IMG/VR virus record: IMGVR_UViG_3300044980_000010
Location: 39,947 to 103,946 of that record
Source: a virus
Reading direction: 5' to 3' (one strand)
Length of the DNA: 64,000 nt
Below, piece by piece: positions 481-60,333 of the stretch; position 1 is the first letter of the stretch, and every line of letters begins with the position of its first letter. The translations under genes and the position numbers were made by a program. Below the pieces are notes generated by a model that saw only the letters and a program-made list of their open reading frames with translations, was not told where the DNA came from and made no database searches.

Positions 481-1051
481 GCACAGAGGCATCCTCTACA
501 CGTACAGCGGTAAGATTGCGTTCCCCGGTGGAGCGCCCTCACTTCTCGATACAGCCGTCTCGCTGTCGAGAGAGGGACGCTTCGCCGGGGCGGGGCAGAG
601 ATTCTTCCCTGTCGCACTGCACTCATTCGTGGTGGCTGATCTGCTCCCCGTTGGTTTGCAGTTCGATGGACTGATGCACGACTCTCCAGAGGTCATCACT
701 GGCGACACACCGAAGCCAGCGAAGACTGACGAGATCGAACAGTTTGAAGAAGAACTGCTCGCTGCCAAATACACAGAGATGCGTGTAACTTTTCCGAACG
801 AAGGCATCCGGCACACCGTGAAGGAAGCGGATCGCAAGGTCATGCGCGGCGAGGTCTACACTGTGGGCAACCTGTGGCTACAGGAGTTTTACCAACCGTG
901 CCCAGAGGCAGAGGAGTTGATTTTCAAGTACGTCAAGGAATACACCTACGAGGACATGCTTGAGGCAAGCGGTCGAGTGCCCATGGAGTTCATGCGTAGG
1001 TTCCGGCTGTACAGGCTTCAGTTATCACCAGATCGTCTTGTGAAGACGTAA
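473..1051 (+). CDS. HD-domain deoxynucleotide phosphohydrolase (YfbR/YfdR-like)
   Basis: LSREGRFAG, VALHS, LMHDSPEVITGD, VKEAD motifs; GTG start overlaps the end of recA. Confidence 0.75.
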   Translation: MSEHRGILYTYSGKIAFPGGAPSLLDTAVSLSREGRFAGAGQRFFPVALHSFVVADLLPVGLQFDGLMHDSPEVITGDTPKPAKTDEIEQFEEELLAAKYTEMRVTFPNEGIRHTVKEADRKVMRGEVYTVGNLWLQEFYQPCPEAEELIFKYVKEYTYEDMLEASGRVPMEFMRRFRLYRLQLSPDRLVKT

Positions 1052-1070
1052 ACTCACACAAGGAGACCCA

Positions 1071-1628
1071 ATGTGCGCTCAACCCAATACCCCGAACACT
1101 CCCAGCACTTCCACCAAGCAGGCGTCCACCAAGCCGGAGCCGAAGTGGTTAACGTTGAAGAAGAAGAACTTGTCTTCAGCCGGAAGGAACGCAAAGCGTA
1201 CCGCCAAGCAATCCTCCAGCAGCGCACAGAAGCCAAACCAGCAGTCACGAAACGAAAAGCGAGCACGGTGGGCAAAGAAAAATAAGCCCACGGCTAAACG
1301 CCCAGCCGCGCCGCGTGGTCCCGTGAAGGAGTACCTGTGCGATTGCCATGGAGAACCCGCCCGAAAGCCCAGAGCCGGGACGAAGGTAGCAGTGCAAGAC
1401 CCCGAGTCGAAAAAGATGAAGGACAAGTTTCTCGGCCTCGGGAAGTGGCGCTGTGCCACTACTGGGAAACGCTGCAAGGTAACTCCTCAGGCTCCGAAGC
1501 CCAAAGAAGTGCCGCAGCCAACAATCGGAGGGACGGTGCCGGACATCATCTATCCGGCCAAGCTACAGACTCCGATGCTCGTTGTGCCACCACCCACGGA
1601 GGTGCTGGATGCGACAACTGCGGTCTAA
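1071..1628 (+). CDS. Basic hypothetical protein with Cys/His cluster
   Basis: AGGAG RBS; CDCH...C...C; start ambiguous with overlapping ORF 1073-1285. Confidence 0.5.
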   Translation: MCAQPNTPNTPSTSTKQASTKPEPKWLTLKKKNLSSAGRNAKRTAKQSSSSAQKPNQQSRNEKRARWAKKNKPTAKRPAAPRGPVKEYLCDCHGEPARKPRAGTKVAVQDPESKKMKDKFLGLGKWRCATTGKRCKVTPQAPKPKEVPQPTIGGTVPDIIYPAKLQTPMLVVPPPTEVLDATTAV

Positions 1629-1803
1629 CGATTGGGAGTATATCGTGGCGGGGGTCAATCTGATCCTCGCCTTCATCCTCATCGCGGCGTGGAAGCGTAC
1701 AGGCAGCGATGCCTACGCTATGGCCTCGGCGTGGTGCTCTGCAACATCAGTGGTCATGCTCGTTCAGATTCTACGGAGGGTTATCCATGACGGTAGGCAT
1801 TAA
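1609..1803 (+). CDS. Small 2-TM membrane protein
   Basis: GGAGG RBS, two hydrophobic segments. Confidence 0.55.
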   Translation: MRQLRSNDWEYIVAGVNLILAFILIAAWKRTGSDAYAMASAWCSATSVVMLVQILRRVIHDGRH

Positions 1804-2197
1804 AGGCCAACACATCTTCATCGTTCTGTTCTTCTTGCTCGCGTTGTTCCTGCTGTTTGAGGAAGAATCTAACGGAGCCGTGGGGAAGAGGCACGACAAC
1901 TCGCTTGGCACCATGATGTACATGGACAACCCAATGTCGTACGTAGCTGGCTTAGTCACTGCGATTGCCTACGTCGATGAGGGCAAAGGAATCGTGGTGC
2001 GCGTGCAGCCCATTGGGACGTACAGCCTGTACACCGACGAGAAGCTATTCTGCAATCCCGGCGCGGTCGAGAAGTTCAAGAACGTGGGGAACCCCATGGT
2101 GCTCACCTACCGCACCAAAGCAAGTCGCCTGATCGAAGGTATCGGATGCCACGAGCTAGTGAGCGTAGACGGCTTGAAGCCGAAGGAGATACAATGA
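1787..2197 (+). CDS. Membrane-anchored hypothetical protein
   Basis: GGAGG RBS; N-terminal TM helix IFIVLFFLLALFLLF. Confidence 0.65.
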   Translation: MTVGIKGQHIFIVLFFLLALFLLFEEESNGAVGKRHDNSLGTMMYMDNPMSYVAGLVTAIAYVDEGKGIVVRVQPIGTYSLYTDEKLFCNPGAVEKFKNVGNPMVLTYRTKASRLIEGIGCHELVSVDGLKPKEIQ

Positions 2198-2448
2198 ACG
2201 TCACACACACAATGTGCGACCGAGAGTTCTGCAAGCACGACCATGCTCTCAAGAACAGCTTGTTCAAAGAGAGGAAGGCTGATGGTGCCGGGAGCAGCGA
2301 GGACTGGTTCTATGTTTTCGATCTCTGTGCCACCTGTCAACAAACGCTGATCGACGAAATCTTTGAGATCGTTCGCGTACGCCCATTCACCGAAGTGGAT
2401 GCGCTGGCTCTGCTCAAGAAACTCCTTATCAAGTTCAGGGTGGGATAG
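2194..2448 (+). CDS. Hypothetical protein, possible Zn finger
   Basis: AGGAG RBS, ATGA overlap, CDREFC...DLCATC. Confidence 0.6.
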   Translation: MNVTHTMCDREFCKHDHALKNSLFKERKADGAGSSEDWFYVFDLCATCQQTLIDEIFEIVRVRPFTEVDALALLKKLLIKFRVG

Positions 2449-2601
2449 ATGCAAACACTGAGCGCAATAGGGAGCGTAGCCTCCATCTTGGGCCTGCTCG
2501 TTTCCCTATACGTTCTGTGGAGAGAGTTGGCTCTGCAAGCCGACGTGACAAAACTCAAGAAGGAAGAAGAGGATTGGCATGACCACAACCCTCGTCCGTA
2601 A
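2449..2601 (+). CDS. 50-aa single-TM protein (holin-like candidate)
   Basis: Hand-translated MQTLSAIGSVASILGLLVSLYVLWRELALQ...; abuts the previous stop; upstream of the lysozyme. Confidence 0.5.
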   Translation: MQTLSAIGSVASILGLLVSLYVLWRELALQADVTKLKKEEEDWHDHNPRP

Positions 2602-3206: not shown

Positions 3207-3726
3207 TGAGAAGGCGTGGAAGATCGTCAAGAACTACCTGCCCACTCACTACATCGGAGCCACTGGACCTTGCTGCGACAGGTGCAGCATGATGCTCCGT
3301 GCTGTGGTTGAAGCACAGATGGTAGCCGAGGCCGATAACCGTACCAGTTGTGCTGTCTCCTACAGGCTGGGCTATGACGCTGGCAAGCACGATGCCCATG
3401 TGGACGATCCAGACATGGACGGCACAGACTTCGCGCATCCGGCATGGTGGCGCGGTCACGAGTACTCCTTTGCAATGATGTGCAGAGAAGTGAATGACAT
3501 TCTGGACGGCAAGAAAGCGAACGTGGGAACTGCCACGCAGCCATGGCAAGCATTGCGGCAACGGCTGTACGACATCCGCACGCTGCTAGGTTTAGCCGAG
3601 CGAGTCATCACGCAGATGCACTTCGACCGAATGAGCCAGTTCTACACGACCATTATGCAGTGGTACAAGGTTCGCCAAGACTACGCAAAGCGCGTGGCTC
3701 AAATCCAAAAGGAGAACACCAAGTGA
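3196..3726 (+). CDS. Hypothetical phage protein
   Basis: AGGAG RBS; DGTDFAHPAWWRG motif. Confidence 0.65.
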   Translation: MAYNEKAWKIVKNYLPTHYIGATGPCCDRCSMMLRAVVEAQMVAEADNRTSCAVSYRLGYDAGKHDAHVDDPDMDGTDFAHPAWWRGHEYSFAMMCREVNDILDGKKANVGTATQPWQALRQRLYDIRTLLGLAERVITQMHFDRMSQFYTTIMQWYKVRQDYAKRVAQIQKENTK

Positions 3727-6722: not shown

Positions 6723-7291
6723 TGTTCGGAAACGACATTGAAGGTCGCTACAAGCATGACAGCACGTTCCGGCGCGTCGTGGATCAGATGCGTGCTCTGC
6801 TTAGTGCCTACCACATCACTCCCGGCGAACTGCGCGAGGCTTCCATCCTAGCCGCGACGATGCATGAGTCCGAGAACATACGGCCTCTCTACATCCTCAA
6901 GTATGACCGGGATGCAATGATTTATCCCATGCGCTTTGACATGAACCCTCCCGCTTTGTTTGGTGGCGACTCTCGTACAGGTCGGTGGGTGACGAGCACT
7001 CCCAACGTAACCGAGCAGGACAAGAAGTCTGAGCCTGAGAAACCCAAGTACAAATGCATCTGTAACTACACTGGCACGGTAGCTGCGCTGCATTCTCAGA
7101 CGTGCAAGGATTACAACTGGTCCGTGACTCACCCCTCGCTGTTCACCGAGCACGTGTATGGCGAATGGCACAAAGGTCTGGGCAACGACAATGAGTGGCG
7201 CATGTGTATACGGTGTCAGATGAGCAGCACCTACATCGAGCACAACAAGATCACCACCTGCACTGGCAAGTACGTTCAACCAAAATCATAG
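6722..7291 (+). CDS. Hypothetical protein
   Basis: Translationally coupled ORF; C-terminal Cys/His clusters. Confidence 0.6.
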   Translation: MFGNDIEGRYKHDSTFRRVVDQMRALLSAYHITPGELREASILAATMHESENIRPLYILKYDRDAMIYPMRFDMNPPALFGGDSRTGRWVTSTPNVTEQDKKSEPEKPKYKCICNYTGTVAALHSQTCKDYNWSVTHPSLFTEHVYGEWHKGLGNDNEWRMCIRCQMSSTYIEHNKITTCTGKYVQPKS

Positions 7292-7299
7292 GAGGCACC

Positions 7300-8376
7300 A
7301 TGGCACTCTTCGGCACAGCCGCTGCACCAAAGAAGCTGGACCTGACAAAACGAAATCCCATTCTCGACCCACTGCTCAAGAAGATGCAGGATCGCCTAGT
7401 AGGGCAAGGTAACGCCGCAGAGGTGCTGGTTGACATGGTGGCGACTCACCTGTCAGGTTTCGGTGCTCCCGGTAGGCCAGCAGGCAATGCGCTGCTCCTT
7501 GGGCCTACAGGCGCTGGCAAGACGCACGCCGTGGAGGTTCTGTGCGAGGGACTTGTAGGGGATGCAAAGGGTCTGATCAAAGTAGATTGTGCCGAGTTTC
7601 AACACTCGCACGAGATCGCCAAGCTGATAGGCTCGCCTCCCGGCTACCTAGGGCACCGCGAGACACCTCCTCTGTTGACTCAGGAGCGCATCAACGCGCT
7701 GCACAAAGAGGGCATGCCGTTATCTGTCATTCTCTTCGATGAGATCGAGAAGGCTTCGGACGCTCTGTGGCAGTTGCTGCTGGGCGTGCTCGACAAAGCC
7801 ACGCTGACTCTAGGTGACAACCGCGTGACTAACTTCGAGCACTGCATCATTCTGATGACCTCCAACCTTGGTGCTAAGGAGATGCACGCCAAGAAGTACG
7901 GCTTCAAACAGAGCGAAGAGATCGAAATCATCAACGATGAGAAGAACGAGGAGATCGCGCTCTCTGCCGCCAAGAAGCACTTCACGGCTGAGTTCATCAA
8001 CCGCCTCGATCACATCGTGACGTTCAATACGTTGACCAAGCCGCAGGTGGCTCAGGTTATGAAGATCGAACTGGACCTGATCCAGAAGATGTTCTGGGAC
8101 AAGGCGAAGTTCATCTACCAACTCACCCCTGCTGCGAAGTACACGATCTTGGAAGAGGGCTACAGCATCGAGTACGGCGCTCGCAATCTGAAGCGCGTCA
8201 TTGAGAAGCGCCTGCGGCTTCCGCTGGCTGGACTAGTGTCCTCTGGGCAGATTTCACCGGGAGCTACACTGGTCATCGACCAAGCCCACCCGAAGGACAA
8301 GCAGTTCGAGTTCATCTCGACCAAGCTGGCCGGGACGAACATCACATTCAAAGATGCCGAGGAGGCAATATTATGA
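7300..8376 (+). CDS. Stand-alone ClpA/ClpB D2-type AAA+ ATPase
   Basis: LVGQ, Walker A GPTGAGKT, KLIGSPPGYLGH, Walker B ILFDEIEKA, MTSNLG, EFINRLD, YGARNLKR. Confidence 0.9.
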   Translation: MALFGTAAAPKKLDLTKRNPILDPLLKKMQDRLVGQGNAAEVLVDMVATHLSGFGAPGRPAGNALLLGPTGAGKTHAVEVLCEGLVGDAKGLIKVDCAEFQHSHEIAKLIGSPPGYLGHRETPPLLTQERINALHKEGMPLSVILFDEIEKASDALWQLLLGVLDKATLTLGDNRVTNFEHCIILMTSNLGAKEMHAKKYGFKQSEEIEIINDEKNEEIALSAAKKHFTAEFINRLDHIVTFNTLTKPQVAQVMKIELDLIQKMFWDKAKFIYQLTPAAKYTILEEGYSIEYGARNLKRVIEKRLRLPLAGLVSSGQISPGATLVIDQAHPKDKQFEFISTKLAGTNITFKDAEEAIL

Positions 8377-8693
8377 AGAAAACAAAAGTAACCGTAAAGT
8401 CGCTGCGTGAGGAACTGAAGAACGTGCAAGAGAACTTCGACGTGTACCGCGAGAAGACTCGCGCTTACATCTTCGAGAACGCCAGTCTGGGAAACCGCCG
8501 TCGCCTGATGTCGATCACGCCTGCCAACGAAAAAGGCATGATCAACGGTATGACGATTCCAGAACTGGTCATGCTCGTCAACCTCAACGAAGGAACCGGA
8601 GAAGTGGTTCTGTTGGAGACTGAGAACAACAAGAAAGACCTCGTGGTCATAGCCAAGAAGAAAGGGCCGCGCACCCCGGTGGACCTCCTGTGA
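8373..8693 (+). CDS. Hypothetical protein
   Basis: GGAGG RBS, ATGA overlap. Confidence 0.6.
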   Translation: MKKTKVTVKSLREELKNVQENFDVYREKTRAYIFENASLGNRRRLMSITPANEKGMINGMTIPELVMLVNLNEGTGEVVLLETENNKKDLVVIAKKKGPRTPVDLL

Positions 8694-9550
8694 TAATCGA
8701 CCCTCTCTTCAAAGGAACCGCCCTCAGCAACGAAGGGCTGGACAAGGCAGTGGGCATCGGGGAAGCCTTCACGAAGCTGCTGCAAGTGCTGGACGAAGTT
8801 TGTCCAAAGAGCCGCGAGTTCTCCATCGCTCGCACCAAACTGGAAGAGGCTTCGTTCTACGCAAAGAAATCTCTCACCAACTACGAAGGCAACCGCCAAC
8901 CGTTGCCAGAAGGGAACTCTAACGTGGGATTCACTATCGAGTTCTCATACAACGACGCGCCTTTCACGGCATCCAGCAATGACTCTCTCACCACAAACGG
9001 AGAGAGTCTGGATAACGTGGTATTCCAAGATCGCGCAGCAGCGGAGAAAGAAGCAACTCTGCAAGAACACCAGATGGGAATACGCTACAAATACTGGGTG
9101 GTGAGCACTGGCATTACAGTTGCGCCTAGCACTGGTCTTAAAGTTGTGCCTCGCACTGCGATCTACGACGCCATTACCAAAGAAGATCAGTACGCGCAGG
9201 GCTGGGCAAAGGGCAAGCGCAGCGTGGATGGCACCGTGCCGGACCACCTCGTATCTCGCCAGACAGGCCAGCCGTTCTCTTCCATGGAGTGGGTTATCTT
9301 CGCAGAGAAGTACCTCAACGAAGCAAAGACGGCCTACGCAAACTTCCTGCCTGACATGAACGTGGTCAACATCCGTCTCCTCAAGGCAGCATCACTGCTA
9401 GTCAGTGCATTGCAGTGTTCTGCCTCCCAACAGGATTTGGACAAGATCGCGGGTGTGTCGAGCACTGGGTTCCCCATTCAACATGGAGGACTCTCCGCAT
9501 TCAAACAGTACGCGAAAGACAATCCAGAGTTCGCAGGAGACCGAGCATGA
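8690..9550 (+). CDS. Multidomain protein: Acb2/Tad1-like hairpin N-terminus plus MazG-like helical C-terminus
   Basis: CPKSREFSIARTKLEEASFYA resembles the Tad1/Acb2 hairpin; EWVIFAEKYLNEA...LLKAASLLVSAL. Confidence 0.55.
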   Translation: MIIDPLFKGTALSNEGLDKAVGIGEAFTKLLQVLDEVCPKSREFSIARTKLEEASFYAKKSLTNYEGNRQPLPEGNSNVGFTIEFSYNDAPFTASSNDSLTTNGESLDNVVFQDRAAAEKEATLQEHQMGIRYKYWVVSTGITVAPSTGLKVVPRTAIYDAITKEDQYAQGWAKGKRSVDGTVPDHLVSRQTGQPFSSMEWVIFAEKYLNEAKTAYANFLPDMNVVNIRLLKAASLLVSALQCSASQQDLDKIAGVSSTGFPIQHGGLSAFKQYAKDNPEFAGDRA

Positions 9551-39707: not shown

Positions 39708-40007
39708 TTACTTCTTTTCTTCTTCCACTTCTGCGATCTTGTCCCCGGTCTTTTTGAACATCTCCGTGAACTTCATAATGCCGTACGGTGATGCCGCAAA
39801 GGTTGCCAGAGCACCGATGATGAGAGGAAGACCACCTACCCAAACCTGTAGCTTGTCTACAGGCTGGCTCATCATGTGCCTGACCATCCACCAGATCAGA
39901 GCCATGGAAGATACCGACAACCACGCGCTGGTGATGCGAGAGGAACTGGGGCCGTTCTCATCGCTGAAGGCTTTACCTAGCCACGGCCAAACTTTACTAA
40001 TATCCAT
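39708..40007 (-). CDS. 2-TM holin-like membrane protein
   Basis: FSDENGPSSSR followed by two TM helices and a charged tail. Confidence 0.55.
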   Translation of the reverse strand: MDISKVWPWLGKAFSDENGPSSSRITSAWLSVSSMALIWWMVRHMMSQPVDKLQVWVGGLPLIIGALATFAASPYGIMKFTEMFKKTGDKIAEVEEEKK

Positions 40008-58531: not shown

Positions 58532-58561
58532 ACAAAACCCACACCTCGAAAGGTGTGGGTT
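58532..58561 (-). terminator. Intrinsic terminator
   Basis: AACCCACACCT-TTCG-AGGTGTGGGTT-TTGT. Confidence 0.85.
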
Positions 58562-59076: not shown

Positions 59077-59152
59077 TGGCTGGCCCCAGAGGTCTCGAAC
59101 CTCCACCACACGTGTTAACAGCACGTTGCTCTGCCGATTAAGCTAGAGGCCA
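59077..59152 (-). tRNA. tRNA-Asn(GTT)
   Basis: ACGTG-CTGTTAA-CACGT, U1-A72, G73, CCA. Confidence 0.9.
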
Positions 59153-59439
59153 TCCTCTACTTCACGATGACAGTTCGCGCAGATAAGAACACATTTCTTC
59201 GCCTCTGCTAAAAGTCTGGACCAACTGTAGGTCAAGCCCTCAGAGCATATCGCAAAAGATTTGTCTTCAGGATTCGTGTGATGAAACTCCAGTGCTCTCC
59301 AACACCTGCTATATCCACAGATGCTGCATTTGCCACCGAACAGTTCCTTCAACTTCCTAATCTTGTTCTTCCTCCACCGCTGAACGTTCTCAGTCAACTT
59401 CTTTTTCTGTTCAGGTGAAGAATCTTTCCATCTAGACAT
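59143..59439 (-). CDS. HNH endonuclease
   Basis: GGKCSICGY...ALEFHH..P..K...KCVLICANCHRE. Confidence 0.88.
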   Translation of the reverse strand: MSRWKDSSPEQKKKLTENVQRWRKNKIRKLKELFGGKCSICGYSRCWRALEFHHTNPEDKSFAICSEGLTYSWSRLLAEAKKCVLICANCHREVEDGL

Positions 59440-59534: not shown

Positions 59535-59614
59535 TGGTCGGCTGGGCGAGGGGCGTGTCTCGCATACGTCCGGCCCATCGCCGGATGCTTACCACATATT
59601 CAGCTACTCAGCCG
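59535..59614 (-). ncRNA. tRNA-like cloverleaf with CCA but non-canonical loops (Pro-derived?)
   Basis: CGGCTG/CAGCCG-A-CCA, TCCGG/CCGGA, GCGAG/CTCGC; T loop ACACGCCC. Confidence 0.6.
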
Positions 59615-59795
59615 TCATAAACTTTATCGGTGGATTATTGTACCGTTCGCCACCGTTGACGTGTTTTCCCCTGTCCGCACAGGGCCGCTTAGGTATACAC
59701 GCTTGCAACTCAAACTCTGCCTCGCCTCCTCACGGACTGGCTGGGCGTCAGGCTTCGGCTATGGCGCTTTCACGCGAGCCGTCTGAAGCTAAGAC

Positions 59796-59930
59796 ATCAA
59801 GGGGAATGCTCTACCAGACTGAGCTACGTCGCGCATCCGCGAGTCCGCGTTGCTCTCGCTTTAACGGGAGACATTGGATGCTGGAGGCGACGACAGGATT
59901 TGAACCTGCGACCTTTCCCAGATCGTTGAC
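59796..59930 (-). ncRNA. Circularly permuted tRNA-like RNA (YrlA/Y-RNA-like)
   Basis: T-arm plus acceptor 3' strand plus CCA (59919-59882) precede the acceptor 5' strand plus D-arm (59833-59802). Confidence 0.75.
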
Positions 59931-59947
59931 CATTTCTGGTCGAACTT

Positions 59948-60021
59948 TGGTGGACCCTAAGGGAATCGAACCCATATTCGCCGCGTGCAAGGCGGCAGTC
60001 CTCCCGTTAAACGAAAGGCCC
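59948..60021 (-). tRNA. tRNA-Ala(TGC)
   Basis: GCCGC-CTTGCAC-GCGGC, G3-U70, CCA. Confidence 0.9.
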
Positions 60022-60304
60022 ACGTGTAAACTTTTAATGAGTGCGCGACGAAGGCCGCTAGGGCAACAACGTCGCGCTCCTCGGTGCATCTATGTCGTAT
60101 GCGTCTCTTTGGTTGCGCTAGACTGATGCAAACTTTGGACGTGGCGGCTTGTTGCGCCGCCTGCTGTACAGCTACGTCTCAGTGATCTCTATGCCGGGGC
60201 CTCACTACTCTGAAAGGAGAATGACAGAGGAGACCCCGGCGTGCTTCGCGGCATTACGCCGCAGGTGCGGAAGAGAACTTGGCCGTGTTTTTCGGCTCAC
60301 ATCC

Positions 60305-60333
60305 AGTATACAGCCAGCCACCATCATTGTCAA
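60305..60333 (-). promoter_or_regulatory. Near-consensus sigma70 promoter driving the RNA array
   Basis: TTGACA-17-TATACT. Confidence 0.85.

Follow-up and report, generated by a model that had tools for sequence, protein, structure and literature searches.

A tRNA operon of a phage genome without Ro60 most likely encodes a functional YrlA-class small RNA, in the form of a circularly permuted tRNA-Gly mimic without an anticodon

YrlA (Y RNA-like A; Rfam RF02553; Chen et al. 2014) carries the motif GNCGAAN0-1G near its 5' end as the putative contact with the Ro60 protein (PMC4201824). Y RNAs are defined by this protein partner, and searches for them have been limited to the surroundings of Ro60 genes (PMC4201824). 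YrlA-type tRNA mimics, including phage copies beside Ro60, have already been published (PMC4201824, PMC12135203). Here we analyse a tRNA-like RNA element, hereafter the module, on the minus strand of a 64,000-nucleotide (nt) stretch of DNA from a soil phage (the window; positions 39,947 to 103,946 of IMG/VR record IMGVR_UViG_3300044980_000010). It is most likely a functional small RNA of the YrlA class, in the form of a circularly permuted, anticodon-less mimic of tRNA-Gly. Like YrlA, including the copies in mycobacteriophages and other phages, the module consists of a T-arm, a loop-closed acceptor, and a D-arm, with a closing stem in place of the anticodon arm. It keeps the tRNA tertiary nucleotides and scores in the range of modules upstream of phage Ro60 genes. 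Unlike YrlA, for which a same-strand Ro60/TROVE gene is expected no more than about 4 kb away, it resides in a 94%-complete genome with no Ro60 or vWA gene. It also differs from YrlA in that a long 5'/3' stem is not evidently conserved, that the window does not have the GNCGAAN0-1G motif, that the module stands in a tRNA operon next to tRNA-Ala, and that its acceptor is extended by a 48-nt hairpin.

All elements of the module are found on the minus strand between 59919 and 59802, at the places given in a preliminary description made from the letters of the window. In transcript order they are the closing stem, variable loop, T-arm, acceptor stem with its 48-nt hairpin extension, and D-arm:

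59919-59915, minus strand: closing stem, 5' strand, GGGAA; equivalent to tRNA positions 39-43; 5/5 pairs changed on both sides across 12 modules
59914-59910, minus strand: variable loop, AGGUC
59909-59893, minus strand: T-arm, GCAGG-UUCAAAU-CCUGU, with G53-C61, U54, U55, C56 and A58 present
59892-59886, minus strand: acceptor stem, 3' strand, CGUCGCC
59885-59882, minus strand: U73-CCA, a bulge between the acceptor stem and the extension helix
59881-59834, minus strand: 48-nt extension hairpin, closed by (G)CAUCC/GGAUG(C), which stacks on the acceptor stem
59833-59827, minus strand: acceptor stem, 5' strand, CGCGACG, followed by U8-A9 (UA)
59824-59808, minus strand: D-arm, GCUC-AGUCUGGUA-GAGC, followed by A26
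59806-59802, minus strand: closing stem, 3' strand, UUCCC; equivalent to tRNA positions 27-31, with no anticodon loop after it

The two halves pair as first proposed, with the added detail that the acceptor stem has six Watson-Crick pairs and a C1xC72 mismatch. The tRNA tertiary nucleotides present are U8, A14, G15:C48, G18G19, G53:C61 and U54-U55-C56-A58, and C48 is able to form the Levitt pair with G15. Neither ARAGORN nor the Rfam tRNA model calls a tRNA over 59802-59919, and both find the tRNA-Ala and tRNA-Asn genes nearby. We also considered the open reading frames (ORFs) that overlap the module, one of 214 aa on the plus strand and one of 92 aa on the minus strand. Both were rejected: they have no PHROG match, overlap tRNA-Ala, and are interrupted by a 236-nt insertion/deletion.

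The permuted form is real and is kept in other phages. Contigs from two other soil samples and studies cross the module with no differences (X3 over 59639-60200 and X4 over 59606-60035), which excludes a local misassembly, a possibility that the preliminary description had raised. Relatives were gathered through the neighbouring family-A DNA polymerase. Of these, L004/L005 and L011 carry one module each, and L006 carries two in tandem after its tRNA-Ala; a pattern search found further modules in L374 and in L009, an unrelated 76-kb GC-rich phage. Acceptor extensions of 20-48 nt occur at the same place in the relatives. The L006 modules lie at 3484-3660 (minus strand) and are separated by AAAA. 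One has a 41-nt acceptor extension; the second is compact, with closing stem CUUGG/CCAAG, and scores 46.5 bits on Rfam YrlA. Another pattern match, L008, proved to be a pair of att-like tRNA 3' fragments and was set aside.

The initial MAFFT alignment misplaced the acceptor strands, and the covariance model was therefore seeded from one sequence. A model seeded only on the unrelated phage L009 retrieves the window module at 50.9 bits. With the rebuilt model, true modules score 74-94 bits and the window module 90.8 bits. An alignment of six modules has 98.4% of its cells paired, with double-sided changes in 12/21 pairs. In an alignment of twelve modules from nine contigs, covering relatives and unrelated phages and including six modules outside model building, 97.9% of cells are paired and 13/20 pairs show double-sided changes (52 cells). 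None of 500 shuffles reaches this level. The twelve-module alignment was fitted to the model and so leans towards structure, but the signal is specific, because slid controls pair only 38-54%. Most of the covariation is found in the closing stem and the acceptor stem, the latter being 100% paired with five covarying pairs across the twelve modules, and the D-stem is invariant. When the four-helix cloverleaf is enforced, it lies 0-2.5 kcal/mol from the minimum free energy in eight modules and equals the optimum in three. An artefact of tandem tRNAs, in which the T-arm of one tRNA is read together with the D-arm of the next, was rejected as well: no tRNA is called at this place, the halves pair with each other, and such artefacts in the same genome score 19-31 bits against 90.8. 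The module is a selected structure and not a broken tRNA.

Comparison with a tRNA of the phage points to its origin. The D-arm, the variable loop AGGUC and U73-CCA are all identical to those of the same phage's tRNA-Gly(GCC); the preliminary description had noted the D-arm and U73, and the variable loop and CCA now join them. In tRNA-Gly(GCC) the acceptor reads GCGACCG/CGGUCGC; the anticodon stem, UCCCC/GGGGA, differs from the closing stem of the module by one pair. Judged from these identities, the module is this tRNA-Gly opened at the two edges of the anticodon loop and joined anew by way of its acceptor end. This clear derivation, the absence of the module from several close relatives, and its position at a site prone to recombination, where HNH endonuclease genes occur and cassettes come and go, would also fit a functionless, decaying by-product of a tandem tRNA-Gly duplication or of cassette recombination. 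We regard decay as very improbable. Relatives with 64-81% polymerase identity, and unrelated phages too, show compensatory changes in three stems (closing, T and acceptor), the tertiary-contact nucleotides are all intact, the breakpoints fall exactly at the anticodon-loop borders in every member, and the same design is a proven functional RNA elsewhere. As a separate observation, short contigs in X1 and X4 match window positions 59808-59828 (21/21 letters) and 59891-59915 (24/25) and join these D-arm and T-arm sequences through 17 nt that read as an ordinary tRNA-Pro(UGG) anticodon arm. The depth of these contigs is near that of the phage, and they may represent a tRNA of the host or of a co-resident phage.

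Permuted tRNAs of two other kinds invite comparison. In the permuted tRNA genes of Cyanidioschyzon merolae and Thermofilum, the 3' half precedes the 5' half and the intervening sequence lies at the acceptor end; these genes yield complete tRNAs with an anticodon loop by way of a bulge-helix-bulge junction. The module shares the order of the halves, and the phage encodes the RNA ligase RtcB, which could circularise a transcript for reopening at the acceptor end into a working tRNA, as in Cyanidioschyzon. However, the module has no anticodon loop, and its flanks form no bulge-helix-bulge motif. The seven nucleotides that follow the closing stem show no conserved U33/R37 in the five modules compared (CUUGAUG, AUGAAUG, GCAAAUU, AAAACUU and GGGCGGU), and the L009 phage has a module and no RtcB. 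Because no anticodon loop can form and the L009 phage does without the ligase, a permuted tRNA gene is close to refuted and deserves hardly any weight. Two-piece tmRNA likewise contains a permuted tRNA-like domain without an anticodon. The module differs from it in having C3:G70 rather than G3:U70 and in lacking a tag reading frame and pseudoknots. ARAGORN run with its tmRNA search (-m) reports no tmRNA, and it finds eight tRNAs over the whole 103,946-bp record.

The closest described family is YrlA. It is the best Rfam match of the module, and the only family reported at relaxed thresholds, with 34.7 bits (E = 2e-5) against a gathering score of 69 bits. A score below the gathering threshold is normal for phage copies, since modules directly upstream of phage Ro60 genes score 33-44 bits; the gathering score thus has no power to tell phage copies apart. 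The YrlA-type order of T-arm, acceptor hairpin and D-arm, as first read from the sequence, is upheld. In L004, L009 and L011 the Rfam model aligns only over positions 23-86, the tRNA-like core.

To place the window module among others of its type, a descriptor was used that comprises a closing stem, a variable loop of 4-5 nt, a T-arm, a seven-position acceptor closed by 0-150 nt, and a D-arm. It was run on 234 IMG/VR loci picked by T-arm and D-arm patterns, so that the proportions that follow are not population frequencies. The search yielded 50 clean modules, none overlapping an ARAGORN tRNA. Reversed sequences gave no hits with the strict version of the descriptor and 16 hits, as against 221, with the relaxed version. 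A TROVE/Ro60 protein is encoded in 21/39 module contigs, including 13 of the 18 near-complete genomes, and the ORF directly downstream on the same strand is Ro60 in all ten loci tested. The flanks of these Ro60-linked copies form a long stem, with GGUG(Y)(R)..AG opposite CUUGAUCUC. We take this stem to resemble the Ro60 site of animal Y RNAs.

The same module is found beside other proteins. DUF2828 (PF11443) is encoded in the L168, L210, L263 and L268 contigs, and their modules carry a stem and ACAGCAA handle. The L156 module lies directly after a DUF7873 (PF25283) gene (E = 1e-63), and L218 is also DUF7873-positive. The module, found with Ro60, DUF2828 and DUF7873, is therefore a shared RNA element that accompanies at least three protein families. 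In the literature searched, no paper on tRNA-mimic RNAs beside DUF2828 or DUF7873 was found. A candidate fourth partner family is a 640-670-aa protein whose gene lies downstream of a long-acceptor module in L101, L105 and L108; it has no Pfam, PHROG or PDB sequence match. The gene occupies 623-2542 (plus strand) in L101, 5456-7441 (minus) in L108 and 7243-9255 (minus) in L105, about 50-200 nt from the module and overlapping it in L108. These are phages of 38-43 kb without Ro60, DUF2828 or DUF7873. The protein falls into phage-only clusters in a protein atlas, and its predicted fold is nearest to the MXAN_6230/SCO0854 RING-domain proteins (TM 0.61).

The window module belongs to the Ro60-negative, tRNA-adjacent kind. 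A same-strand tRNA lies within 60 nt of the module in 0/26 cases on Ro60-positive contigs versus 10/22 on Ro60-negative ones, and acceptor extensions of at least 19 nt occur in 2/26 versus 9/22. The DUF2828- and DUF7873-linked mimics share the permuted module with the window, and some of those copies also lie inside phage tRNA clusters. Acceptor extensions, of 13-30 nt, are present in the DUF7873-type copies of L156 and L218 as well. Unlike the DUF2828 class, the window flanks hold no stem and ACAGCAA handle. The DUF7873 class is defined by a gene directly upstream and two modules within about 400 nt; the window has a single module, and its relative L006 has two. A hexamer track of UUAGRC/CAGAC type, as in the DUF7873 class, was considered for the window and dismissed, with too few copies to count.

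None of the three partner genes is found in this phage. The whole 103,946-bp record (G000) is rated 94% complete, and it contains no match to TROVE/Ro60, vWA_Ro60 or VWA_2; the preliminary description had reported no Ro60 in the window, and this now extends to the entire near-complete genome. DUF2828 is not found in G000. For DUF7873, the Pfam scan covered 20 of the 33 mid-sized ORFs, and a six-frame search covering the whole genome was negative, with positive controls in L156 and L218. The L101-type protein was not found in G000 either. The L009 phage, likewise 94% complete, is a second orphan without these partner genes. We found no paper on copies in phages lacking all of these partner genes, in a search that did not cover several key reviews.

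Other genes of this phage concern RNA metabolism. RtcB, for which the preliminary description had suggested a search, is encoded outside the window at G000:C1:17231-18358 (plus strand; 370.8 bits), and an Rv2179c-like 3'-5' exoribonuclease is encoded at G000:C1:35679-36365 (plus strand), also outside it. Both are RNA-repair or RNA-trimming enzymes that could act on tRNAs or on the mimic. RtcB is not consistently linked to the module, since G000 encodes it and the L009 phage does not. A CCA-adding enzyme was not found in G000. At window positions 8690-9550 (plus strand) lies the gene of a 286-aa protein with an N-terminal Acb2/Tad1 hairpin domain (E = 3.5e-10), a fold found in phage sponges for cyclic-nucleotide immune signals.

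The module is part of an operon of tRNAs and small RNAs that is headed by a sigma-70-like promoter, with no credible ORF between promoter and module. Its principal features are as follows:

60305..60333, minus strand: sigma-70-like promoter, TTGACA-17-TATACT, 11/12 consensus matches, heading the non-coding RNA/tRNA operon
59948..60021, minus strand: tRNA-Ala(UGC), transcribed in the same direction as the module and 29 nt upstream of it
59712..59947 (about), minus strand: 236-nt RNA cassette composed of a 5' hairpin, the module and 3' hairpins, with A(A/G)GUU at both borders
59712..59801, minus strand: 3' part of the cassette, CUUGAUGUC..UCAGAC and then a pair of stem-loops, with GUCCGUGAGGA among the loops; L011 and L374 have homologous 3' flanks

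In L011 and L006, too, tRNA-Ala precedes the module at the same position. Downstream, the small-RNA array extends beyond an HNH endonuclease gene and then tRNA-Asn as far as a terminator (58561..58536). The cassette is missing from the closest relative, L001, as a clean gap of 236 columns between near-identical flanks, and 236 is not a multiple of three. In L003, tRNA-Ala and tRNA-Asn stand 8 nt apart without any cassette. Since L001 and L003 do without it, the RNA is an accessory, exchangeable unit. The sequence AAAGUU(U) recurs at the borders of RNA units (minus strand 59070, 59619, 60028 and 60130) and near the cassette ends at 59947 and 59712. Its heptamer count in the whole window is 15, versus 8.6 expected. 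AAAGUU(U) contains an RNase E-like AG/UUU context and could mark a point of processing, of recombination, or of both.

Downstream of the cassette, a conserved non-coding stretch at 59560-59711 (minus strand) reads GCAAGCGUGUAUACC...GGUGGCGAAC...AAUCCACCG...GAGACNCGCCCCUCGC. It is near-identical in L001 (4690-4830) and recognisable in L006, L004 and L374, and it probably represents a further structured RNA encoded in the operon. A free-standing HNH endonuclease gene (59143-59439, minus strand; PHROG 2255, E = 8e-26) lies between the RNA units and tRNA-Asn. It is missing in L001, and AP2-HNH genes occupy the same region of L006; the operon is a hot spot for mobile endonucleases.

The flanks of the module bear on whether it is a Y RNA in the strict sense, in which a flanking helix and loop would bind host Ro60 (Rsr) and tether it to polynucleotide phosphorylase (PNPase). 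The preliminary description had drawn the ends as GUCAA/UUGAU, reminiscent of a Ro-binding helix. This helix can be drawn in the window only: it has no counterpart in L011, and the 5' flanks of L374, L004 and L006 are entirely different. The nucleotides concerned may also enter competing folds. One is a long-range 4-bp helix, GUCA/UGAC versus GGCG/CGCC. The other is local:

59928..59941, minus strand: candidate local hairpin, GACCA-GAAA-UGGUC, which competes with GUCAA/UUGAU

The corresponding place in L011 reads GCCCA...UGGGC, a double-sided change of one pair, so that the GGUC nucleotides can form a covarying local hairpin instead of a handle.

Several features nevertheless favour a strict Y RNA. 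Phage Y RNAs linked to Ro60 contain this same module, and the published phage Ro60/Yrl particle binds host PNPase (PMC12135203). The window 3' flank, CUUGAUGUC, resembles the CUUGAUCUC strand of the Ro60-linked handles. A possible architecture shared with L011 consists of a 5-bp stem, a 12-nt 5' loop and a 4-nt 3' loop. In L011, the stem GACAU/AUGUC closes a 12-nt loop that holds an exact GNCGAAG; at the collinear place the window has GAAAU/AUGUC with an A-G mismatch, and its loop reads GGUCAACGAUCU. The motif in the window is thus degenerate (CGAU, not CGAA), and GNCGAAN0-1G is absent there (AACGAUCUG). Elsewhere it is exact in L011 (GACGAAG), near-exact in L009 (CACGAAG), and absent in L004, L006 and L374. 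L374 keeps the module and the conserved 3' flank beside an unrelated 5' flank, and L004 and L006 have no handle. The restriction of the Rfam YrlA alignment to the tRNA-like domain also speaks against it. Ro60, moreover, occurs in only about 5% of bacteria (PMC4201824). Because the 5' flanks differ and the Rfam model aligns only the core, we conclude from these comparisons that the conserved unit in this group is probably the module with its 3' extension, rather than a Y-type 5'/3' handle. Recruitment of host Rsr is possible and has no positive support here, because the handle helix, the 5' motif and the CCA are not conserved; we judge a strict Y RNA to be rather unlikely.

The acceptor end allows a further comparison, with the YrlA RNA of Mycobacterium smegmatis. 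Both RNAs join a seven-position acceptor to a T stem of five pairs, which is the geometry measured by RNase P, and in the window CCA follows the discriminator. The M. smegmatis RNA, whose acceptor stem has 7 bp, undergoes RNase P cleavage and acquires CCA in vivo (PMC4201824). Similar cleavage with 3' trimming of the window RNA would leave a two-piece, anticodon-less tRNA-Gly look-alike with a free U73-CCA, either aminoacylated or acting as a decoy for enzymes that target CCA ends. The 12-bp acceptor/T stack, the encoded UCCA exactly at positions 73-76, and the phage's own exoribonuclease and RtcB would suit such maturation. Unlike the Rsr-bound M. smegmatis RNA, which receives its CCA after cleavage, the window module has an encoded but unconserved CCA and a paired leader. 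The "intact CCA" of the preliminary description is therefore present in the window module but is peculiar to it. In all long-insert members, the insert helix stacks on the acceptor after a 3'-strand bulge of about 1-6 nt at the NCCA place. This bulge is C-U-C-C-A in the window; CCA is not conserved, because the bulges of the relatives read UAAC, CAACAG or ACAU. The extension helix takes up nucleotides -1 to -6 in base pairs, which is unfavourable for RNase P and makes cleavage less likely. The 1:72 position is a C-C mismatch and position +1 is C. Of the glycyl-tRNA synthetase identity elements, the pairs G1:C72, C2:G71 and G3:C70 are displaced, and C35/C36 are missing. Maturation into a free two-piece tRNA look-alike is improbable on these grounds.

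What the analysis shows is the structure of the module, its conservation under selection, its origin from tRNA-Gly, where it lies in the genome, and that partner genes are missing; from this we infer how the RNA would be transcribed, fold in vivo and act, and what its partner may be. Our favoured interpretation, which we hold to be probable though by no means secure, is that the RNA forms a stable, doubly sealed, L-shaped tRNA-Gly mimic that acts in trans on a host factor that recognises the tRNA elbow and acceptor. It would be transcribed together with tRNA-Ala and tRNA-Asn from the promoter at 60333. The anticodon end would be sealed by the GGGAA/UUCCC stem, and the acceptor end by the 48-nt hairpin on the acceptor stem, with U73-CCA left as a bulge. 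A tRNA-like L-shape and stability are to be expected because all elbow-building nucleotides are kept. In trans, the module may serve as a tRNA-shaped decoy or adaptor, occupying a host protein that reads the elbow and the acceptor arm of tRNAs. Candidate targets would be a host partner of the ring-protein type, PNPase, a tRNA-processing enzyme, or a tRNA-directed defence enzyme. In other phages, the module forms the effector half of a two-part particle and is encoded beside Ro60, DUF2828 or DUF7873.

A number of points weigh against this interpretation. Presence of the module is patchy: about 5 of the roughly 13 relatives with enough upstream sequence have it, and L001, with 88% polymerase identity, does not. 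Given this patchiness, the module is dispensable. The extension hairpin of the window is unlike the A(A/U)AGCAGAC-type insert common to L374, L004, L006 and L011. Among public sequencing runs, none registered as RNA contains the stretch. The pattern-based choice of IMG/VR loci and the fitting of the covariation alignment to its model, described above, count on the same side. The words decoy and adaptor rest on shape and family resemblance. A search of 50,697 GenBank phage records with the region (blastn) gave no match, and all relatives found with the large terminase subunit (TerL) are below 27% identity, so that no cultured relative or host is known. An exact 21-mer from the T-arm and acceptor had no match in IMG/VR. 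RtcB was also tried as a guide to the host and was uninformative, with 53-57% identity to proteins of many phyla (Myxococcota, Acidobacteriota, Planctomycetota, Burkholderiales).

A bolder proposal, which is speculative and unlikely to hold in full, is that handle-less and partner-less mimic cassettes make up a distinct, free-standing class of phage RNAs. Such cassettes would be shuffled among tRNA genes at AAAGUU junctions. No Ro60-type ring would be needed: acting as decoys, the RNAs would titrate host enzymes of immunity or stress whose target is the elbow or the acceptor end of tRNA, with the bulged NCCA-like stretch and the extension serving as bait.

The tRNA mimic described here is maintained by purifying selection in phage genomes that are near complete and contain neither Ro60 nor the two other partner genes. 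The module may itself be active, for instance by binding PNPase, RNase P or some other factor that recognises tRNA. Alternatively, these phages may borrow a partner from their host, or further partner families may remain to be found. As a 236-nt accessory cassette with natural presence and absence variants, it offers an experimentally tractable system for the tRNA mimicry of Y-like RNAs.

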